Origin: Candidatus Margulisiibacteriota bacterium
GTDB taxonomy: Bacteria > Margulisbacteria > WOR-1 > XYC2-FULL-46-14
DNA: 53,687 bases
Direction: 5' to 3'
Assembly (NCBI GenBank): GCA_042563095.1
Contig: JBHPMS010000003.1
Coordinates: forward strand, 1 to 53,687
Shown piece after piece: positions 16,644 to 23,529 of this stretch; the stretch's first letter is position 1; the number at the start of each line of letters is the position of its first letter. The position numbers were made by a program, and so were the translations under genes. The notes beneath the pieces are model-generated. The model saw nothing but the letters and a program-made list of their open reading frames with translations. It searched no databases and had not been told where the DNA came from.

Positions 16644-16912
16644 CAGCGCACCATGGCAGGAATATTACCCCAGAGTGTTGATGTAAAATCAACCAACATT
16701 GATATTAACCAGGGAGAAGTGAAGGCTATCATCAACATTACTGTTACCATTTTTGGGACAAAAGTTAATGTTTGCTCCTGGATTTGCGTAACCGCCTGGA
16801 AGAGTGAGACCGTAAAACCGACCAGCAGGCCCGCCCCCACCATTGGAAGGGAAAGCATAAGGATTAACGTTATGCCTTGATATAATACTTGTACCGCAAA
16901 ATCTTGGTTCAT
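16643..16912 (-). CDS. fliQ: Flagellar export protein FliQ
   Basis: FQAVTQIQEQTLTFVPK. Confidence 0.96.
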   Translation of the reverse strand: MNQDFAVQVLYQGITLILMLSLPMVGAGLLVGFTVSLFQAVTQIQEQTLTFVPKMVTVMLMIAFTSPWLISMLVDFTSTLWGNIPAMVR

Positions 16913-17586
16913 CTAAAACTCAATAACAATCCTTTTGTAATTAAATTCCACCCATCTACCAGGACGAATAAAAGTATCTTAAAGGGTAAAGAAACCATAA
17001 CTGGAGACAACATAAACATTCCTAAAGAGAGTAAAATATTGGCAACTACCAGGTCAATTACGATAAACGGGATAAAAAGCAAAAACCCAATCTGGAAAGC
17101 AGTTTTTAATTCAGAAATCATGAATGAGGGAATAATCACATGGGTTGGAACCTCTTCTACACTTTTGGGAGTTGGAATTTTTGAAAAACCGACAAAGAGT
17201 TCCAGGTCTTTTTCCCTGATTTGCCTGATCATAAATTTTTTAAGAGGTTTAACTCCCCGGTCAAAAGCGGCTCTTTCTGAAATCTTTCCCTGGGTGTAGG
17301 GAGTAATCGCAACTTTATTTACATCGTTGAATACCGGCGCCATTACAAAAACTGTCATAAAAATAGCAAGGCTGATCAGGACAGAAGAGGGGGGGACCTG
17401 CTGGGTTCCAACCGCGGTTCTGATTAATGCCAAAACGATTATGGTCCTTAAAAAGCTGGTAACAGAGATCAAGAAAAAGGGGGCGAGTGAGATTAAGGCA
17501 ATCCCAAGGATTAATTGAATGCTGCTGCTAAACTGAGGCGAAGAAAGAATCTGGTTAAAATCAAGGCCGGCTGCCAGTGGATTCAT
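16909..17586 (-). CDS. fliP: Flagellar export protein FliP
   Basis: TSFLRTIIVL, GTQQVPP, SELKTAFQIGF, SLPFKILLFVLVDGW. Confidence 0.97.
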   Translation of the reverse strand: MNPLAAGLDFNQILSSPQFSSSIQLILGIALISLAPFFLISVTSFLRTIIVLALIRTAVGTQQVPPSSVLISLAIFMTVFVMAPVFNDVNKVAITPYTQGKISERAAFDRGVKPLKKFMIRQIREKDLELFVGFSKIPTPKSVEEVPTHVIIPSFMISELKTAFQIGFLLFIPFIVIDLVVANILLSLGMFMLSPVMVSLPFKILLFVLVDGWNLITKGLLLSFR

Positions 17587-17873
17587 GCCTCTTCCTCAAA
17601 AGAATCTAAAAGCAACATGTTCTTCTGGCTTACTGCAACCAGGTAAGATTTGTTGTTTGACTTTATCATGTAAGCAGATACTCCGGGTTCTAATCCGATC
17701 CTCTCTACAATTTTAACTGATTGTCCCATATTTTGCATTTTAAACCTGGGGAGCAGATATTTTGATGCTACGTAAATTAAACCTAGAACAATTGCTAAGG
17801 ACAAAAAAACCTGCATGATGTACCCGAAAGTGATAATTGGAGTATTTTGTAAACTTAAGGCCTCTTGAGTCAT
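17583..17873 (-). CDS. fliO: FliO-like protein
   Basis: One TM followed by VKIVERIGL; lies between fliN and fliP. Confidence 0.75.
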   Translation of the reverse strand: MTQEALSLQNTPIITFGYIMQVFLSLAIVLGLIYVASKYLLPRFKMQNMGQSVKIVERIGLEPGVSAYMIKSNNKSYLVAVSQKNMLLLDSFEEEA

Positions 17874-18160
17874 TGGATTACGACATTGGTTATTCGCAAA
17901 CCATAGCTGTCGTCAATTGCTACTACTTCGCCCTGGGCAATTAACTGTCCACCCACTTTTAAGTCAAGTGGCTCTCCGGCTAAGCGGTCTAACTCTATAA
18001 TCGCTCCTTCTTTTAACTCAAGTATTTCTCGCAGGGTCAATTTGGTCCGCCCCAATTCAACCGCTACTTCGATCGGAATTTCTCCTAAAGTTTTGTCAGT
18101 TAATGATGCTCCGGTAGCCTGTTCTTCTAGTTCTGGAAAATGTACTTTTTTAACTTCCAT
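17870..18160 (-). CDS. fliN: Flagellar motor switch protein FliN
   Basis: IPIEVAVELGRTKL...IIELDRLAGEPLDL...AQGEVV (SpoA domain). Confidence 0.93.
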   Translation of the reverse strand: MEVKKVHFPELEEQATGASLTDKTLGEIPIEVAVELGRTKLTLREILELKEGAIIELDRLAGEPLDLKVGGQLIAQGEVVAIDDSYGLRITNVVIQ

Positions 18161-19407
18161 TATAAGTCCTCCTTATCAATATCATCTTCGCTTAAAATAT
18201 CTTCTTCAAATTGTTCTTCTCCCTCCTCTGCCTCAGCCTCTTCCTCTGTCATTTCGTCACTTTCTTCTTCTGCAAATTCTTGATCATCTGATTCTGAATA
18301 TTCTTCTTCCGTATATTCTTCCTCCGTATATTCTTCCTCAAACTCTTCTTCCGGTTTAACCGGCTCTTCCTCTGCTGGTGCTGGTTCAACTTCTGCTTCA
18401 GTTTCAATAGTTGGCGGGGCAATCTTAACATCAGGAGTGCCCTGATAATCTTTTTCTACACTAATGATTTTGATGGCAACCTTTTCATTTGCAATTCCAG
18501 GCTGGCCTAAAATAATCCGGCGGTCTCCTAATAATATGGGCAGGGCAGAATAGAGGGATTGGTCAAGAGAAATTACATCCCCAATTTCTATGGAATTAAG
18601 GTCACTGGCATTGATCTGTGTTTTCCCTAAAATAATATTTAGCTGGTGTTGGACGGCCCCCAGCAAGCCTTTTGGTAATTTGTTTAATTTTAGCTGGCCG
18701 GTCTTTTTGCTCTGGTTTGTATTTTTCAAGATTGATTTAACTAATTTCCCGGAGTAACCAATAATTATTTTTCCATAACTCTGATTTAGTGTTCCTTCGA
18801 TTACAAAATAAATAAATGAACTATTTGCAGGGATACTGTGCCGGGCGGATAATTCGGACGAAGGGAAAACATTTATTTCTGTTTGTTCCAGCAAGTTGTT
18901 CTCAAAGATAGAGTTGAAAAGGGGCAAATATTTTGAGAGAGTTGTTTCAAAGATTGCATTTTCTGTTTCGGTGGGGGTCTGGCCCGAAAGTGCAGCATCA
19001 GCCCCTCCCAAAGCAGAATTAACGATACTTTCAGTTAAAGGCAGGTCAAACGCTACTAACATTTTTTCATGGAAATTAAGCAGTTTTAATTTTGTTACCA
19101 GCATCGGGAGCGAATAAGTTTCGGTAAAGGTCCCATAGTTGCTCTGACAGGCATCAATCCGGTAAACTTCGCCGTGAGCCCCAAGATCTTTTTTAAGCGC
19201 TTCAAAAAATTTCTGGCCAAACCGGTAGTGTGAAAAATGGGCTTCCTCCAGTTCTTCTTTTGAGAGCCGGTCAAAACCATAAAGGCCTGATTTGACTCTC
19301 TTGATTAATGCACGGGCCGGTTTATAAGTGGTCCAATCCCCCAGGGCGGCAGCTAACTTCAGGCTCCTCTTTTGAGGGGCAAGGTCATTTTTTTTATTTT
19401 CTGGCAT
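18160..19407 (-). CDS. fliM: FliM-like motor switch protein with very acidic C-terminal tail
   Basis: FDRLSKEEL, CheC-like middle (SALGG), SpoA domain (IEIGDVISLD), then ~65 aa rich in E/D. Confidence 0.8.
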   Translation of the reverse strand: MPENKKNDLAPQKRSLKLAAALGDWTTYKPARALIKRVKSGLYGFDRLSKEELEEAHFSHYRFGQKFFEALKKDLGAHGEVYRIDACQSNYGTFTETYSLPMLVTKLKLLNFHEKMLVAFDLPLTESIVNSALGGADAALSGQTPTETENAIFETTLSKYLPLFNSIFENNLLEQTEINVFPSSELSARHSIPANSSFIYFVIEGTLNQSYGKIIIGYSGKLVKSILKNTNQSKKTGQLKLNKLPKGLLGAVQHQLNIILGKTQINASDLNSIEIGDVISLDQSLYSALPILLGDRRIILGQPGIANEKVAIKIISVEKDYQGTPDVKIAPPTIETEAEVEPAPAEEEPVKPEEEFEEEYTEEEYTEEEYSESDDQEFAEEESDEMTEEEAEAEEGEEQFEEDILSEDDIDKEDL

Positions 19408-19416
19408 TTACTTTTT

Positions 19417-20217
19417 TTATCCGAGCTTGGTTATAAAATTATTTATGATATCAGATGCCATCCTGACAACCGACAAGTTTCCGCTAAGGGCTCTCTGGAT
19501 CTCCAGCGAATCAATTGTTTCACCTAGATAAAAAACATTGGATTGTTCGAGGCTGCCACCAGTAACGCTTCCAGCCGAACTCCCGGAGCCCACTGGTGAA
19601 CTTGGTGTTCCTGACGCAAGTGTTTCAATAAAAGTTGTGCCGTCTCCCTGGGCTAATCCTTGCGGATTCGTGAAATAAGTTAAGGCAATTGAGTAAACGG
19701 TATCAGCGCTGTTGTATTGAAGAACTCCTGCAGTTGTCCAGCTATAATTATTTGCGTCTGGATTTAGACCGGATATTGGAACCAAACTACCAGCAGAATT
19801 AAATCCGTATACTTGATGTCCAGCGGCGGTCACCAGATTCCCATTATTAATCGAAAAATCTCCAGCCCTGGTGTAGCGATAAGTGCTTCCTCCATCAGGA
19901 GAAACAATAAACAGTCCATTTCCGGTTATTGCCAGGTCAATATCGGATCCGGCAACAAAACTACCCTGCGAAAAATCAATTCCTACTTCTGCAACTGCAG
20001 CTCCACCGCCATATTGGGTTGGATTGGTCCCACCCAGGTTTGAAAAAGCATCGGCTGCGGTTCCGCTGTTGATTAATTTGTTGAAGATGGATTCAAAAGA
20101 GATGTCCAGCCTTTTATATCCGTTAACTGACATATTTGCAATATTAGCTGAATTAATTGAAAGTGCAGAATTATATGCCTGGATGGTGTCTTTAGCCTGG
20201 TTCATTATATCGAACAT
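19417..20217 (-). CDS. Flagellar hook/rod protein (short FlgE/FlgG-like, 266 aa)
   Basis: ANIANMSVNGYK N-terminal motif, DLAITGNGLF, YTRAGDF, GSLEQSNV C-terminal motif. Confidence 0.85.
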   Translation of the reverse strand: MFDIMNQAKDTIQAYNSALSINSANIANMSVNGYKRLDISFESIFNKLINSGTAADAFSNLGGTNPTQYGGGAAVAEVGIDFSQGSFVAGSDIDLAITGNGLFIVSPDGGSTYRYTRAGDFSINNGNLVTAAGHQVYGFNSAGSLVPISGLNPDANNYSWTTAGVLQYNSADTVYSIALTYFTNPQGLAQGDGTTFIETLASGTPSSPVGSGSSAGSVTGGSLEQSNVFYLGETIDSLEIQRALSGNLSVVRMASDIINNFITKLG

Positions 20218-20890
20218 CTTTTTTTACCTCCGTAATCTTTATGTTTTGAATCTCAATATTTGCATGCTGTAACGCTAATATTAATTCGCTAACCTTGTCT
20301 TCTAATAATTTTTTCGCTTCGGGATTTGCTCCGATTTCGATCAAGACCTGTCCATTTTTAACCGCCAGATCTAAAAACAGATTTCCCAGCTCTTTTTGTG
20401 AAAGTGAAAGTGATAATTTAGTTTTCTGGCTGGACCTGACCAGCTTAGCCTGTTTGACGATCTCGTTTATTAAGTTTTGAAGGTCAACTCTTGAGACCAT
20501 TGGTTGATTGGTCATGTTCATGGCAGACAGGCTGAATGGTGAGATGGGAGATGGGAGATGGGAGATGGGAATATTCTTAGTTAACACTTCCTTTAAAGTG
20601 TCTGTATTGCTATTTTCATACTGTTCGTTTTCGATCTGTTTTTCTGGTTTTTTATCATTAACATTCACCTGGGCTTGGTTATTGTTTAAAGGTTCTTCTG
20701 TATATGGTGTTTTATCTTCAATTGGCGTAGTGGGAAAGTTAAAATCGAATTCAAGCTTTGCAAAATCAAACATTCTTTCGATCTCTGCCTGCAACTTGCC
20801 TTCAAAAGTGCCGTCAGCACGATTTTGACTGCTTTCATTTGGCAGTGCAGTATTATTTATGCGGCCAGTTGTAATTTGTGCTGCAGACAT
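20192..20890 (-). CDS. FliK-like hook-length control protein
   Basis: C-terminal LSLSQKELGNLFLDLAVKNGQVLIEI...LILALQHANIEI resembles the FliK T3S4 domain; upstream of the hook gene. Confidence 0.6.
   Translation of the reverse strand: MSAAQITTGRINNTALPNESSQNRADGTFEGKLQAEIERMFDFAKLEFDFNFPTTPIEDKTPYTEEPLNNNQAQVNVNDKKPEKQIENEQYENSNTDTLKEVLTKNIPISHLPSPISPFSLSAMNMTNQPMVSRVDLQNLINEIVKQAKLVRSSQKTKLSLSLSQKELGNLFLDLAVKNGQVLIEIGANPEAKKLLEDKVSELILALQHANIEIQNIKITEVKKDVRYNEPG
20541..20570. repeat. Heptamer tandem repeat (GAGATGG)x4+GA inside the fliK-like gene
   Basis: Read directly. Confidence 0.95.
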
Positions 20891-20956
20891 TTTTCCCCTT
20901 ACATAATATATTATCGATATTATACATCAATATCTTGCGTAATCAAGAGGGGAAAT

Positions 20957-21038
20957 TGCCGCGGGAGGGATTTGAACCCACACAGTTTTACCTATACGCT
21001 CCTTAAGCGTACGTGTCTGCCAGTTCCACCACCGCGGC
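20957..21038 (-). tRNA. tRNA-Leu, anticodon AAG
   Basis: Acceptor stem GCCGCGG/CCGCGGC plus discriminator A; D-arm GGAACTGGCAGAC; anticodon arm TACGC-TTAAGGA-GCGTA; long variable arm; GGTTCAAATCC T-arm. CCA not encoded. Confidence 0.9.
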
Positions 21039-22097
21039 ATGAAGAGTTTCCATTTTCATCGAGCGGGAGCCTTTCAATAAAATTATATCACCTGAGCGGA
21101 TGGTTGTCTTCAGTTTAGCCAAAAGTTTTGACTTATCTTTGAAAGCTTTTCCAGGCCATTGATTTCCTAAAGTAAAGACTAAATCAATTTTTTTTCTCTT
21201 TGCAAAATCAATGACTTCTTTGTGTTTTGCCTTTGACTTTTTACCTAACTCTAACATATCCCCAAGCACCGCAATCGTCCTGTGTTCAGTGTTCAGTGCT
21301 CTGAGCTCAGTGATCGTTTCCATTGCAGCCCGCATCGATTGCGGATTGGCATTGTAAGTATCATTAATAATTGTAATCCCATGCTTTTTGATAATATCCA
21401 TCCGTTTACTGGAAGGTTTAAATTTTTCCAATCCTCTTTTCATTTTCTTTTTAGAAATTCCTAAACTCTTAGCAGCCGCAATTGCGAAAAGTGCGTTTTC
21501 CTCGTTGTGTTTTCCGGGGAGCGGAAGCTTAATTCCCTTAAGTTCTTTTTTTGCTGCCGGTTTTATCTTTTTGGCCCCAAATTTTAAAATTTTATTTTTT
21601 TCTCGCGCTGTATTCTTTTTACTCCTAAAATACTTCAGATGCGCATCGCCGATATTGGTTACAATGGCATGGGTTGGACGGACAATTTTTACTAACTCAT
21701 CCATGTCACCCGGGCGTTGAACCGCCATCTCAATAACGGCTGCTTTATGTTTCTTTTTTATTTCCAAAAGAGTAAGCGGAACACCAATCTCGTTGTTAAA
21801 GTTCTCATTGTTTTTAAGGGTGGGGTAGGCTTCGTTTAAAATCGAAGCGAGCATATCTTTAGTGGTTGTTTTTCCAGAGCTTCCGGTGATGCCAATAATT
21901 GGGATATCGAATTTTAATCTGTGTTTGTGTGCGATTTCCTGAAGAGCTTTCTTCCCATTTTTTACCTTTAAAACTCTAGCGCCTTTCTTCAATGCATCTT
22001 TTGTAAAATCATGCCCGTCAAAGTTAGGGCCTTTTATCGGAATAAAAAGGTCGCCTTTTTTGATGGTCCGGGTGTCAATTGATATTCTATTTGACAT
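21003..22097 (-). CDS. murF: UDP-MurNAc-tripeptide:D-Ala-D-Ala ligase (compact form)
   Basis: ITGSSGKTTTK, NFNNEIGVP, INDTYNANP, LGDMLELG, KGSR. Confidence 0.93.
   Translation of the reverse strand: MSNRISIDTRTIKKGDLFIPIKGPNFDGHDFTKDALKKGARVLKVKNGKKALQEIAHKHRLKFDIPIIGITGSSGKTTTKDMLASILNEAYPTLKNNENFNNEIGVPLTLLEIKKKHKAAVIEMAVQRPGDMDELVKIVRPTHAIVTNIGDAHLKYFRSKKNTAREKNKILKFGAKKIKPAAKKELKGIKLPLPGKHNEENALFAIAAAKSLGISKKKMKRGLEKFKPSSKRMDIIKKHGITIINDTYNANPQSMRAAMETITELRALNTEHRTIAVLGDMLELGKKSKAKHKEVIDFAKRKKIDLVFTLGNQWPGKAFKDKSKLLAKLKTTIRSGDIILLKGSRSMKMETLHAAVVELADTYA
21281..21315. repeat. Five degenerate heptamers in murF
   Basis: TGTGTTC AGTGTTC AGTGCTC TGAGCTC AGTGATC; encodes ITELRALNTEHR. Confidence 0.8.
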
Positions 22098-23331
22098 CCG
22101 CTGAATCTAAAAATGCCTTATTAGTCTTAAATTCTTTCATTCGGTTTATCAACTGCTCGGTTGCGTCATGTGCATCGTAATCACCCATGATTTTTCTGAG
22201 CAACCTGGTTTTGCCAAGCTCCTGTTCAGTTAATAACAGTTCTTCTTTTCTGGTGCCGGACATCTTAATATCAATTGCCGGGAAAATCCTGGAATCGGCC
22301 AGTTTCCGGTTTAAATGCAGTTCCATATTGCCGGTCCCTTTGAACTCTTCATAAATAATGTCATCCATGCGTGATCCGGTCTCAACCAGGGCGGTTGCGA
22401 TAATTGTCAAGCTTCCGCCTTCTTCGATATTCCTGGCTGCTCCGAAAAATCTTTTTGGACGGTGTAAACAGGTCGGGTCTAATCCGCCAGAAAGAGTTCT
22501 CCCGGATGGGGGAGTGACCAGATTGTAAGCGCGTGCCAGGCGGGTGATTGAGTCTAACAGAACCACAACGTCCTTTTTAGTCTCAACTAATCTTTTTGCT
22601 GATTCAATTAATAATTCAGAAACGTGGATATGTGCTTCTGGTGGGGCATCAAAAGTTGATGCTACAACTTCACCATTAACTGAACGCTGCATATCGGTTA
22701 CTTCTTCCGGCCTTTCATCTACCAGCAGGACTTTGATGATCACATCGGGGAAGTTAGTTGCGATACTATTGGCAATGTTTTTTAGAATAGTTGTTTTTCC
22801 AGCTTTTGGCGGAGAAACAATCATCGCCCTTTGTCCGTTGCCGATGGGTGATAAAAGATCGATCAAGCGCGAAGCCATCGGGCATTTTGGATGTTCCAGC
22901 TTATATCTAATATCCGGAAAAACTGGCGTTAATCTTTCATAATAACTTCGGTCACGGATTATTTCGGGATCGGCGTTGTTGATCGCTTCAATTTTTAAGA
23001 GTGAATAATATTTTTCACCATCTTTTGGTGGGCGGATCTGTCCGGAGACAAAATCACCATTTTGCATGTTAAAACGCCTGATCTGGGTTTGTGAAACATA
23101 AATGTCATCACGCGAGGGGAGGTAACCGTTGGTTCTTAAAAAGCCATAGCCCTCAGGTAATATTTCTAACACACCTTTGGCAAAAATGTTCCCATTCTGC
23201 TTGGTTTTTCCCTCCAGAATTTTAAAGACCAGATCATGCTTTTTGAGCTGCTTGTAATTTTCCAGCCCCATCTTTTTTGAGATATCATACAACTCCGTCA
23301 AATTTTTACCTTCTAACTCAACTATATCCAT
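22087..23331 (-). CDS. rho: Transcription termination factor Rho
   Basis: GVLEILPEGYGFLR, PPKAGKT, DERPEEVTDM, EEFKGTGNME. Start set at ATG 23331 behind AAGGAGG; the ORF-track start runs into a tRNA. Confidence 0.97.
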   Translation of the reverse strand: MDIVELEGKNLTELYDISKKMGLENYKQLKKHDLVFKILEGKTKQNGNIFAKGVLEILPEGYGFLRTNGYLPSRDDIYVSQTQIRRFNMQNGDFVSGQIRPPKDGEKYYSLLKIEAINNADPEIIRDRSYYERLTPVFPDIRYKLEHPKCPMASRLIDLLSPIGNGQRAMIVSPPKAGKTTILKNIANSIATNFPDVIIKVLLVDERPEEVTDMQRSVNGEVVASTFDAPPEAHIHVSELLIESAKRLVETKKDVVVLLDSITRLARAYNLVTPPSGRTLSGGLDPTCLHRPKRFFGAARNIEEGGSLTIIATALVETGSRMDDIIYEEFKGTGNMELHLNRKLADSRIFPAIDIKMSGTRKEELLLTEQELGKTRLLRKIMGDYDAHDATEQLINRMKEFKTNKAFLDSADVK

Positions 23332-23353
23332 TGAAACCTCCTTTTTTGGGTAC

Positions 23354-23435
23354 TGCCCAGGAGAGGATTTGAACCTCCACGGTGTTATCCACACGAACCT
23401 GAATCGTGCGCGTCTGCCAGTTCCGCCACCTGGGC
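23354..23435 (-). tRNA. tRNA-Leu, anticodon CAG
   Basis: GCCCAGG/CCTGGGC acceptor stem; CACGA-TTCAGGT-TCGTG anticodon arm. Confidence 0.95.
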
Positions 23436-23445
23436 GTATTTTTCA

Positions 23446-23529
23446 TGCCGCTGGTCGGATTTGAACCGACATGAGGGTAAACCTCATTCGCTTTTGAGGC
23501 GAACGCGTCTGCCATTCCGCCACAGCGGC
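23446..23529 (-). tRNA. tRNA-Leu, anticodon CAA
   Basis: GCCGCTG/CAGCGGC acceptor stem; TTCGC-CTCAAAA-GCGAA anticodon arm. Confidence 0.95.

Follow-up and report, generated by a model that had tools for sequence, protein, structure and literature searches.

The window, meaning the whole 53,687-nucleotide stretch of DNA analyzed here, carries on its minus strand a type-II tRNA-Leu gene (20957-21038) with the anticodon AAG. The gene is orthologous to the tRNA-Leu(GAG) gene of related bacteria, replaces that gene in its lineage, and co-occurs with a TadA homologue. The most likely reading is that a CUY-reading leucine tRNA arose through a G34-to-A34 change in the resident Leu(GAG) gene, became fixed, and is edited by TadA to tRNA-Leu(IAG), where the A-to-I editing and the decoding pattern are predictions. 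With the window gene, a known phenomenon gains a further lineage; the mechanism is not new.

Inosine at the wobble position of tRNAs other than tRNA-Arg is regarded as a eukaryotic hallmark. In bacteria, A34 is normally found in tRNA-Arg(ACG) only and tRNA-Leu(AAG) mainly in Firmicutes, a background that the earlier note on this DNA gave correctly (PMC13249217, PMC11472039, PMC8072771). According to a 2026 report, bacterial Leu(AAG) genes lie almost all in the class Bacilli, and AAG and GAG occur together in no family (PMC13249217). The host of the window belongs to a Saganbacteria (WOR-1) lineage, a sister group of the Cyanobacteria that is far from the Bacilli, so the same G34-to-A34 replacement is now seen fixed in an unrelated, uncultured lineage. 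Our literature search returned no publication tying Saganbacteria or Margulisbacteria to inosine, TadA or the anticodon. The host assembly comprises 80 contigs (the window is contig C23) and 1.0 Mb at 39.8% G+C, and is rated 52% complete. Absences within it therefore prove little, and the absence of Leu-GAG as well as the presence of Leu-UAG and Arg-ACG rest on its relatives.

The tRNA gene and its locus

ARAGORN predicts four tRNA genes in the whole window, among them a minus-strand tRNA-Leu(aag) at 20956-21039. Rfam RF00005 matches the same strand at 20957-21038, scoring 49.3 bits (gathering score 29, E 1.3e-7). We also built a covariance model (R1) from Leu tRNAs. It assigns at least 66 bits to Leu tRNAs and at most 54 bits to all others, Tyr and Ser tRNAs included, and scores the window gene at 95.3 bits, well within the Leu tier. 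On the minus strand the gene reads GCCGCGGUGGUGGAACUGGCAGACACGUACGCUUAAGGAGCGUAUAGGUAAAACUGUGUGGGUUCAAAUCCCUCCCGCGGCA. It has a 7-bp acceptor stem, an anticodon stem of five Watson-Crick pairs (UACGC/GCGUA) and the anticodon loop U32 U33 A34 A35 G36 G37 A38 (UUAAGGA). A34 is base 21004, a T on the plus strand, and is a G in the GAG orthologues. The 5-bp anticodon stem, the AAG anticodon and A34 at base 21004 had been read from the letters in the earlier note, and ARAGORN, Rfam, the covariance model and the sequence all agree with them.

Recognition by LeuRS draws on a long variable arm, G18G19, A14 and the discriminator A73 as identity elements. All of these are present in the window gene, as judged from the sequence and alignment, and CCA is not encoded. 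Only the T stem is imperfect, with a U50-U64 mismatch that the relative G003 also has. The window gene is confirmed as a real tRNA gene, and a functional tRNA-Leu(AAG) is the best explanation of these features. The gene and its neighbors, all on the minus strand, are as follows.

20192..20890, minus: fliK-like (Flg_hook) ORF, downstream synteny anchor (Pfam PF02120; tblastn synteny)
20957..21038, minus: tRNA-Leu(AAG), type II, no CCA (ARAGORN; Rfam RF00005; model R1)
21002..21004, minus: anticodon A34-A35-G36 (sequence; alignment with GAG orthologues)
21003..22097, minus: Mur-ligase family ORF (ORF list; Pfam Mur_ligase_M, Mur_ligase_C, Mur_ligase)
21082..21110, minus: promoter-like site, AAGACA, 17-nt spacer, TG-n-TATAAT (consensus match only)
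22087..23394, minus: rho, transcription termination factor, upstream synteny anchor (Pfam Rho_RNA_bind, Rho_N, ATP-synt_ab; tblastn synteny)
23354..23435, minus: tRNA-Leu(CAG), CUG reader (ARAGORN, Rfam)
23446..23529, minus: tRNA-Leu(CAA), UUG reader (ARAGORN, Rfam)

The order rho, Mur ligase, tRNA-Leu, fliK-like ORF is kept both in lineages with AAG (families f1 and f4) and in lineages with GAG (f2, f5, f9 and f13), as seen by tblastn, and the tRNA-Leu(CAA)-tRNA-Leu(CAG) pair lies ~2.4 kb upstream in AAG and GAG lineages alike. In 60 relatives, the best tRNA matches can be aligned from end to end; their anticodon arm is conserved, with A or G at position 34 depending on the family. Within this otherwise conserved arm, position 34 is the sole difference between the AAG and GAG orthologues. 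The common gene order and upstream Leu pair indicate that the AAG gene is the resident GAG gene after one transition.

The last 12 codons of the Mur-ligase ORF overlap the first 36 nt of the tRNA (21003-21038), and its stop codon, TAA, coincides with U33-A34-A35. With the ancestral G34 this codon would read TGA; as either triplet is a stop, the anticodon change is silent for the Mur-ligase ORF. The end of the same ORF also contains the promoter-like site, which a consensus scan places ~44 nt upstream of the tRNA 5' end with 10 of 12 consensus matches and an extended -10. The tRNA is followed immediately, on its own strand, by a flagellar cluster (window 16900-20900) with fliK-like, FlgE/F/G D1-domain and FliM/FliN-like ORFs.

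Distribution and origins of A34 in the class

The class was scanned with an anticodon-arm pattern accepting either purine at position 34. Exactly one match was found in 58 of the 65 genomes, AAG in 9 and GAG in 49, and AAG and GAG together in none of these 58. The AAG genomes comprise all four of the window's family (f1), the single genome of f3, all three of f4 and the single genome of f8, G016, a member of another order. Eight class assemblies other than our own, independent and from different projects, therefore carry the same A34 in the orthologous gene.

These counts bear directly on whether the A34 is an artefact. Base 21004 might have been misread or misassembled, the contig might be a contaminant, or the gene might be a decaying pseudogene whose working Leu(GAG) counterpart sits in the half of the genome that the assembly misses. 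The 52% completeness of the MAG and the T-stem mismatch could be taken in favor of such an explanation. Conservation of the A across species at the syntenic locus of eight other assemblies argues that it is not an assembly error, which is how the doubt over this base in the earlier note is settled, and the same observation largely refutes contamination. The U-U mismatch is conserved in G003, the G+C and gene content of the contig agree with those of relatives, no genome of the class holds both AAG and GAG, and the near-complete relative G002 lacks GAG. We consider an artefact scarcely credible.

In G002, a member of the same family (99% complete, 4 contigs), all 46 tRNAs were recovered. Its four-codon boxes each have G34, U34 and C34 tRNAs, with the exceptions of Arg (ACG, UCG, CCG) and Leu (AAG, UAG, CAG), and Arg-ACG and Leu-AAG are its only A34 tRNAs. 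Leu(GAG) was not found in this full set, nor in our own assembly (52% complete) by tRNA calls and the Leu model. The earlier note had asked whether Leu-GAG is absent; it was seen in neither the host assembly nor G002, and no AAG genome of the class has it, so that a hidden Leu(GAG) paralogue is rejected as far as can be tested.

The complete Leu set of G002 (CAA, CAG, AAG, UAG, UAA) recurs in G008 and G010, and likewise in G001, where CAG was not found, and in G003, where the AAG gene is cut by a contig end. G016 has AAG, UAG, CAG, CAA and UAA (twice), without GAG. Leu-UAG is thus retained in G001, G002, G003, G008, G010 and G016; it was not found in our own MAG (52% complete) or in G006 (35 tRNAs found). 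The genome of G006 is rated 100% complete and yielded four Leu tRNAs only (CAA, CAG, AAG, UAA), while CUA makes up 8% of its Leu codons. With only 35 tRNAs found, the missing Leu-UAG is probably an assembly gap; if the absence were real, inosine would be needed for reading CUA.

A maximum-likelihood RpoC tree recovers the window's order with support of 100/100. Within it, f3 and f1, all AAG, group together (88/83), and f4 (AAG) groups with f2 (GAG) (91/87). Outside it, G016 joins the GAG family f7 (93/89). Three changes are needed over the whole tree, and at least two of them are forced by its well-supported branches. Within the order, this branching implies that A34 was gained twice, or that it was gained once and reverted in f2. 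Taken together, the sequences indicate that A34 is fixed in a branch of the Saganbacteria, that G016 is a separate origin, and that at least two origins lie within the class.

A scan of public genomes with the Saganbacteria anticodon arm also retrieved genuine tRNA-Leu(AAG) genes (L021-L031). The MAGs concerned are labelled Desantisbacteria, Elusimicrobia (2), Pseudobdellovibrionaceae, 'Deltaproteobacteria', Clostridia and Auribacterota, and two more are 'uncultured bacterium' MAGs. The origins in Saganbacteria and in these other lineages indicate that the step towards eukaryote-like decoding is recurrent in bacteria.

Two further tRNA-like sequences were noted. In G003, a second tRNA-Leu(AAG)-like copy (G003:C126:9770-9851, L059) matches the gene over its 3' 65 nt and is unrelated in its 5' part; it looks as if an element had integrated into the tRNA gene and its attachment site had been duplicated. 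In our own genome, G000:C46:4299-4366 gives a weak Rfam tRNA match (35.5 bits) without an ARAGORN call.

TadA and the predicted editing of A34

A TadA homologue is encoded in our own genome at G000:C3 ~19874-20326. It displays the features by which the family is recognized, namely the H(A)E and PCxxC zinc motifs (intact as HAE and PCPLC), a C-terminal helix with FF (here DFF) and a length of ~150 aa. Its top PDB matches are the TadA structures 7cph, 2b3j (S. aureus) and 2nx8 (S. pyogenes), at E ~1e-34 to 1e-36. The top NCBIfam family is likewise TadA (NF008113), at 113.6 bits, which is under the curated cut-off of 150. Every TadA of the window's order scores 112-144 bits against this model, the GAG family f2 included. 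TadA was found in 9 of 9 AAG genomes.

Throughout the order, again including f2, TadA lacks eight residues of the loop that follows the DPK motif, and with them the conserved LNH motif. The TadA of G016 keeps the loop length, with DNLLWG replacing DDPKAG. Seven of eight unrelated AAG-bearing MAGs have remodelled TadA loops, showing deletions (Desantisbacteria, Elusimicrobia), insertions or loss of DPK/NH, and S. pyogenes TadA is near-canonical with a full-length loop. A single TadA signature for all AAG lineages was not found, as the deletion occurs in the GAG family f2 too and the loops of G016 and S. pyogenes are full-length. Without a common signature, the remodelled loop is treated as a lead only. 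The comparison of TadA sequences that the earlier note had suggested therefore gave a divided result: TadA is present and its active site is intact, while a signature common to all AAG lineages is absent.

Activity of TadA on a leucine tRNA has precedents. In S. pyogenes, tRNA-Leu(IAG) was established by RNase T1 treatment, Sanger sequencing and in vitro TadA assays (PMC11472039). The S. pyogenes TadA, whose editing motif is YUAMGRA, edits tRNA-Leu(AAG), and E. coli TadA fails on this tRNA (PMC11472039). The loop of the window gene, UUAAGGA, fits the S. pyogenes motif. It differs from the Arg-ACG loop of a relative (CUACGAA) at positions 32, 35 and 37, and the Leu-AAG loop of G002 is UUAAGGG, with G at position 38. 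Since a G37-containing AAG loop is not edited by E. coli TadA (PMC11066159, PMC11472039), editing in Saganbacteria would require an altered enzyme.

The proposed sequence of events is as follows. In an ancestor of the order, the resident tRNA-Leu(GAG) would have taken a single G34-to-A34 transition, which then became fixed. The lineage's TadA would deaminate A34 to give tRNA-Leu(IAG), which may read CUU and CUC and, weakly, CUA, with tRNA-Leu(UAG) and tRNA-Leu(CAG) covering CUA and CUG. The Leu CUN box would then be decoded like the bacterial Arg CGN box (ICG, UCG, CCG) and as in Streptococcus, Lactobacillus and Oenococcus. Standing against the editing reading are the TadA score below the cut-off, the loop deletion, and the missing CUU/CUC shift of Lactobacillales (see below).

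The divergence of TadA (below the family cut-off, loop deletion) might also suggest that a different deaminase edits A34, or that position 34 bears some other modification. G016 might be cited in the same sense, being an AAG genome with TadA and no Arg-ACG among 45 detected tRNAs. However, the NF008113 search of these genomes matched, besides TadA, only RibD-like and short dCMP-deaminase-like sequences, and TadA alone suffices in Streptococcus (PMC11472039, PMC13249217). This alternative is thus very unlikely. In G016 (loci L203-L223, L160-L162, L084), neither Arg-ACG nor Arg-GCG was detected among the 45 tRNAs; Ser-GCT is missing too, which marks its tRNA set as incomplete. If Arg-ACG is truly absent there, TadA would be kept for tRNA-Leu alone.

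Arg-ACG was found in all TadA-bearing relatives checked in the window's order. The reverse arrangement occurs in f10 and f13, 31 genomes in sister clades of the RpoC tree, where the TadA model found RibD-like matches only and no TadA. These genomes have tRNA-Arg(GCG) instead of ACG, and Leu-GAG in all with a match. In these two TadA-less families both tRNAs have G34, and the A34 tRNAs of the class occur only alongside TadA; given the few independent evolutionary events, this co-occurrence is supportive, not statistical. As an observation in its own right, f10 and f13 represent the opposite A34/G34 switch in the same class (e.g., G043:C9:18201-18230, G034:C2:347692-347721 and G039:C2:169844-169873). 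Replacement of Arg-ACG by Arg-GCG is known from Thermotogae and Spirochaetes (PMC8007984).

Codon usage and the nearest known systems

Inosine and unmodified A34 make different predictions for codon use, based on published decoding data (PMC11066159). If A34 were left unmodified, the tRNA would read CUU and, inefficiently, CUC, Leu(UAG) would cover the rest by extended wobble, and the G-to-A change, neutral or slightly deleterious, would reflect drift in genomes that are small and AT-leaning. Several points favor this explanation. The Thr and Ser A34 tRNAs of O. oeni remain unedited (PMC8072771); bacterial TadA is normally very sequence-specific, as the failure of E. coli TadA on Leu-AAG illustrates (PMC11472039); Leu-UAG is kept in relatives; and CUC is rare in the rpoB/rpoC genes of f4, at 1-4% of CUY.

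We compared codon usage across 21 genomes, using all of our own genome and, for each of 20 relatives, ~60 kb of sequence (G005 and G012 contributed less). In our own genome (712 long ORFs), the Leu codons are UUA 0.29, CUU about 0.19-0.20, CUG 0.18, UUG 0.15, CUC 0.09 and CUA 0.09. CUC/(CUC+CUU) is 0.32, and other NNY boxes range over 0.19-0.54. The CUC share of each genome was expressed as a logit, from which the mean logit of seven G34-read NNY boxes was subtracted. The resulting delta logit is -1.00 in AAG versus -1.04 in GAG genomes (Mann-Whitney p 0.46), and CUC still accounts for 4-12% of Leu codons in all AAG lineages. The depletion in f4 rpoB/rpoC is gone once ~60 kb per genome is normalized to other NNY boxes, and no avoidance of CUC was found. 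CUC is used as freely in AAG lineages as in GAG lineages, in line with the inosine prediction and not with that for unmodified A34.

Further points also weigh against unmodified A34. The change is fixed in three families with at least two origins, the 31 TadA-less genomes of the class have no A34 tRNAs, and the loop fits the known motif of an expanded TadA. We therefore regard an unmodified A34 as unlikely. The earlier note had offered both an expanded TadA range and unmodified A34 as possibilities; the former appears the better supported by the sequence comparisons, given the presence of TadA, the loop motif, normal CUC use and the restriction of A34 to TadA-bearing genomes.

Among known systems, predicted TadA editing of the Saganbacteria tRNA-Leu most closely resembles that in Lactobacillales (Oenococcus oeni, Streptococcus pyogenes, S. 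mutans, Lactobacillaceae). The tRNA-Leu(IAG) of O. oeni was demonstrated by Rafels-Ybern 2019, as cited in PMC8072771, and that of S. mutans and the oral microbiome has been shown as well (PMC13249217). In both groups AAG replaces GAG and the two are never found together, Leu-UAG is kept, and Arg-ACG and Leu-AAG are the sole A34 tRNAs (here from G002). Both have a single homodimer-type TadA, and a Leu loop that differs from that of Arg-ACG at positions 35 and 37 and fits YUAMGRA. The host here, in contrast, belongs to Saganbacteria/WOR-1 and not to Bacilli, with at least two origins within the class; the different phylum implies an origin independent of Lactobacillales. The TadA of the window's order also differs from that of Streptococcus by its 8-residue loop deletion.

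Codon usage separates the two groups further. Lactobacillales are enriched in CUU/CUC (PMC13249217), with CUU/CUC up and UUA down relative to GAG sisters (Katanski et al. 2026). Neither the rise in CUU/CUC nor the fall in UUA was seen between AAG and GAG genomes among the 21 compared, where the CUY share is 0.25-0.42 with AAG and 0.26-0.51 with GAG, and GC3 spans 0.28-0.67 and dominates the codon pattern. We treat this shift as an associated and not a defining feature of the Leu(AAG to IAG) type. Saganbacteria thus depart from Lactobacillales in lacking CUU/CUC enrichment and UUA depletion, and in that editing is predicted here and demonstrated there.

The bacterial tRNA-Arg(ACG to ICG) shares with the window gene a box composed of A34, U34 and C34 tRNAs and, presumably, the same enzyme; the amino acid differs, as do the loop (UUAAGGA versus CUACGAA) and the type II structure of the tRNA. 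In eukaryotic tRNA-Leu(IAG), A34 likewise replaces G34 in the CUN box, and I34 reads U, C and weakly A. However, the eukaryotic ADAT2/ADAT3 enzyme is a heterodimer that is sequence-independent, needs the whole tRNA and edits seven or eight tRNAs, whereas the AAG lineage here has two A34 tRNAs only (as seen in G002) and a TadA-type enzyme only. The tRNA-Thr(AGU) of Mycoplasma is an unmodified A34 tRNA. Along with the unedited tRNAs of O. oeni, it resembles the window gene in having A34 outside the Arg box and in belonging to a small bacterial genome. Such unmodified tRNAs occur with or without TadA and serve mainly U-ending codons, while the AAG genomes of Saganbacteria use CUC normally and all encode TadA.

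A tentative proposal, which we regard as rather doubtful, places the enzyme first: the order-wide loop deletion may have relaxed TadA specificity and pre-adapted the order for G34-to-A34 in tRNA-Leu. A34 may then have been fixed twice, or once with reversal in f2, which would still or again have Leu-GAG. The model derived from O. oeni, by contrast, puts the substrate first. If the enzyme-first proposal were true, Saganbacteria would be a natural experiment on the expansion and contraction of wobble inosine and a source of naturally relaxed TadA variants, f10 and f13 having gone the opposite way (TadA lost, Arg ACG to GCG). Lineages of the class can be paired by anticodon (AAG versus GAG) and by the presence or absence of TadA, which makes it possible to ask what enables TadA to take a second substrate, a question that bears on engineered TadA base editors.

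The TadA gene itself lies next to tRNA genes. In our own genome its ORF overlaps the neighboring tRNA-Ser(GGA) by 22 nt (G000:C3:20305-20391). TadA also adjoins tRNA-Ser(GGA) in G002, and it adjoins a type-II tRNA in G006 and G008.
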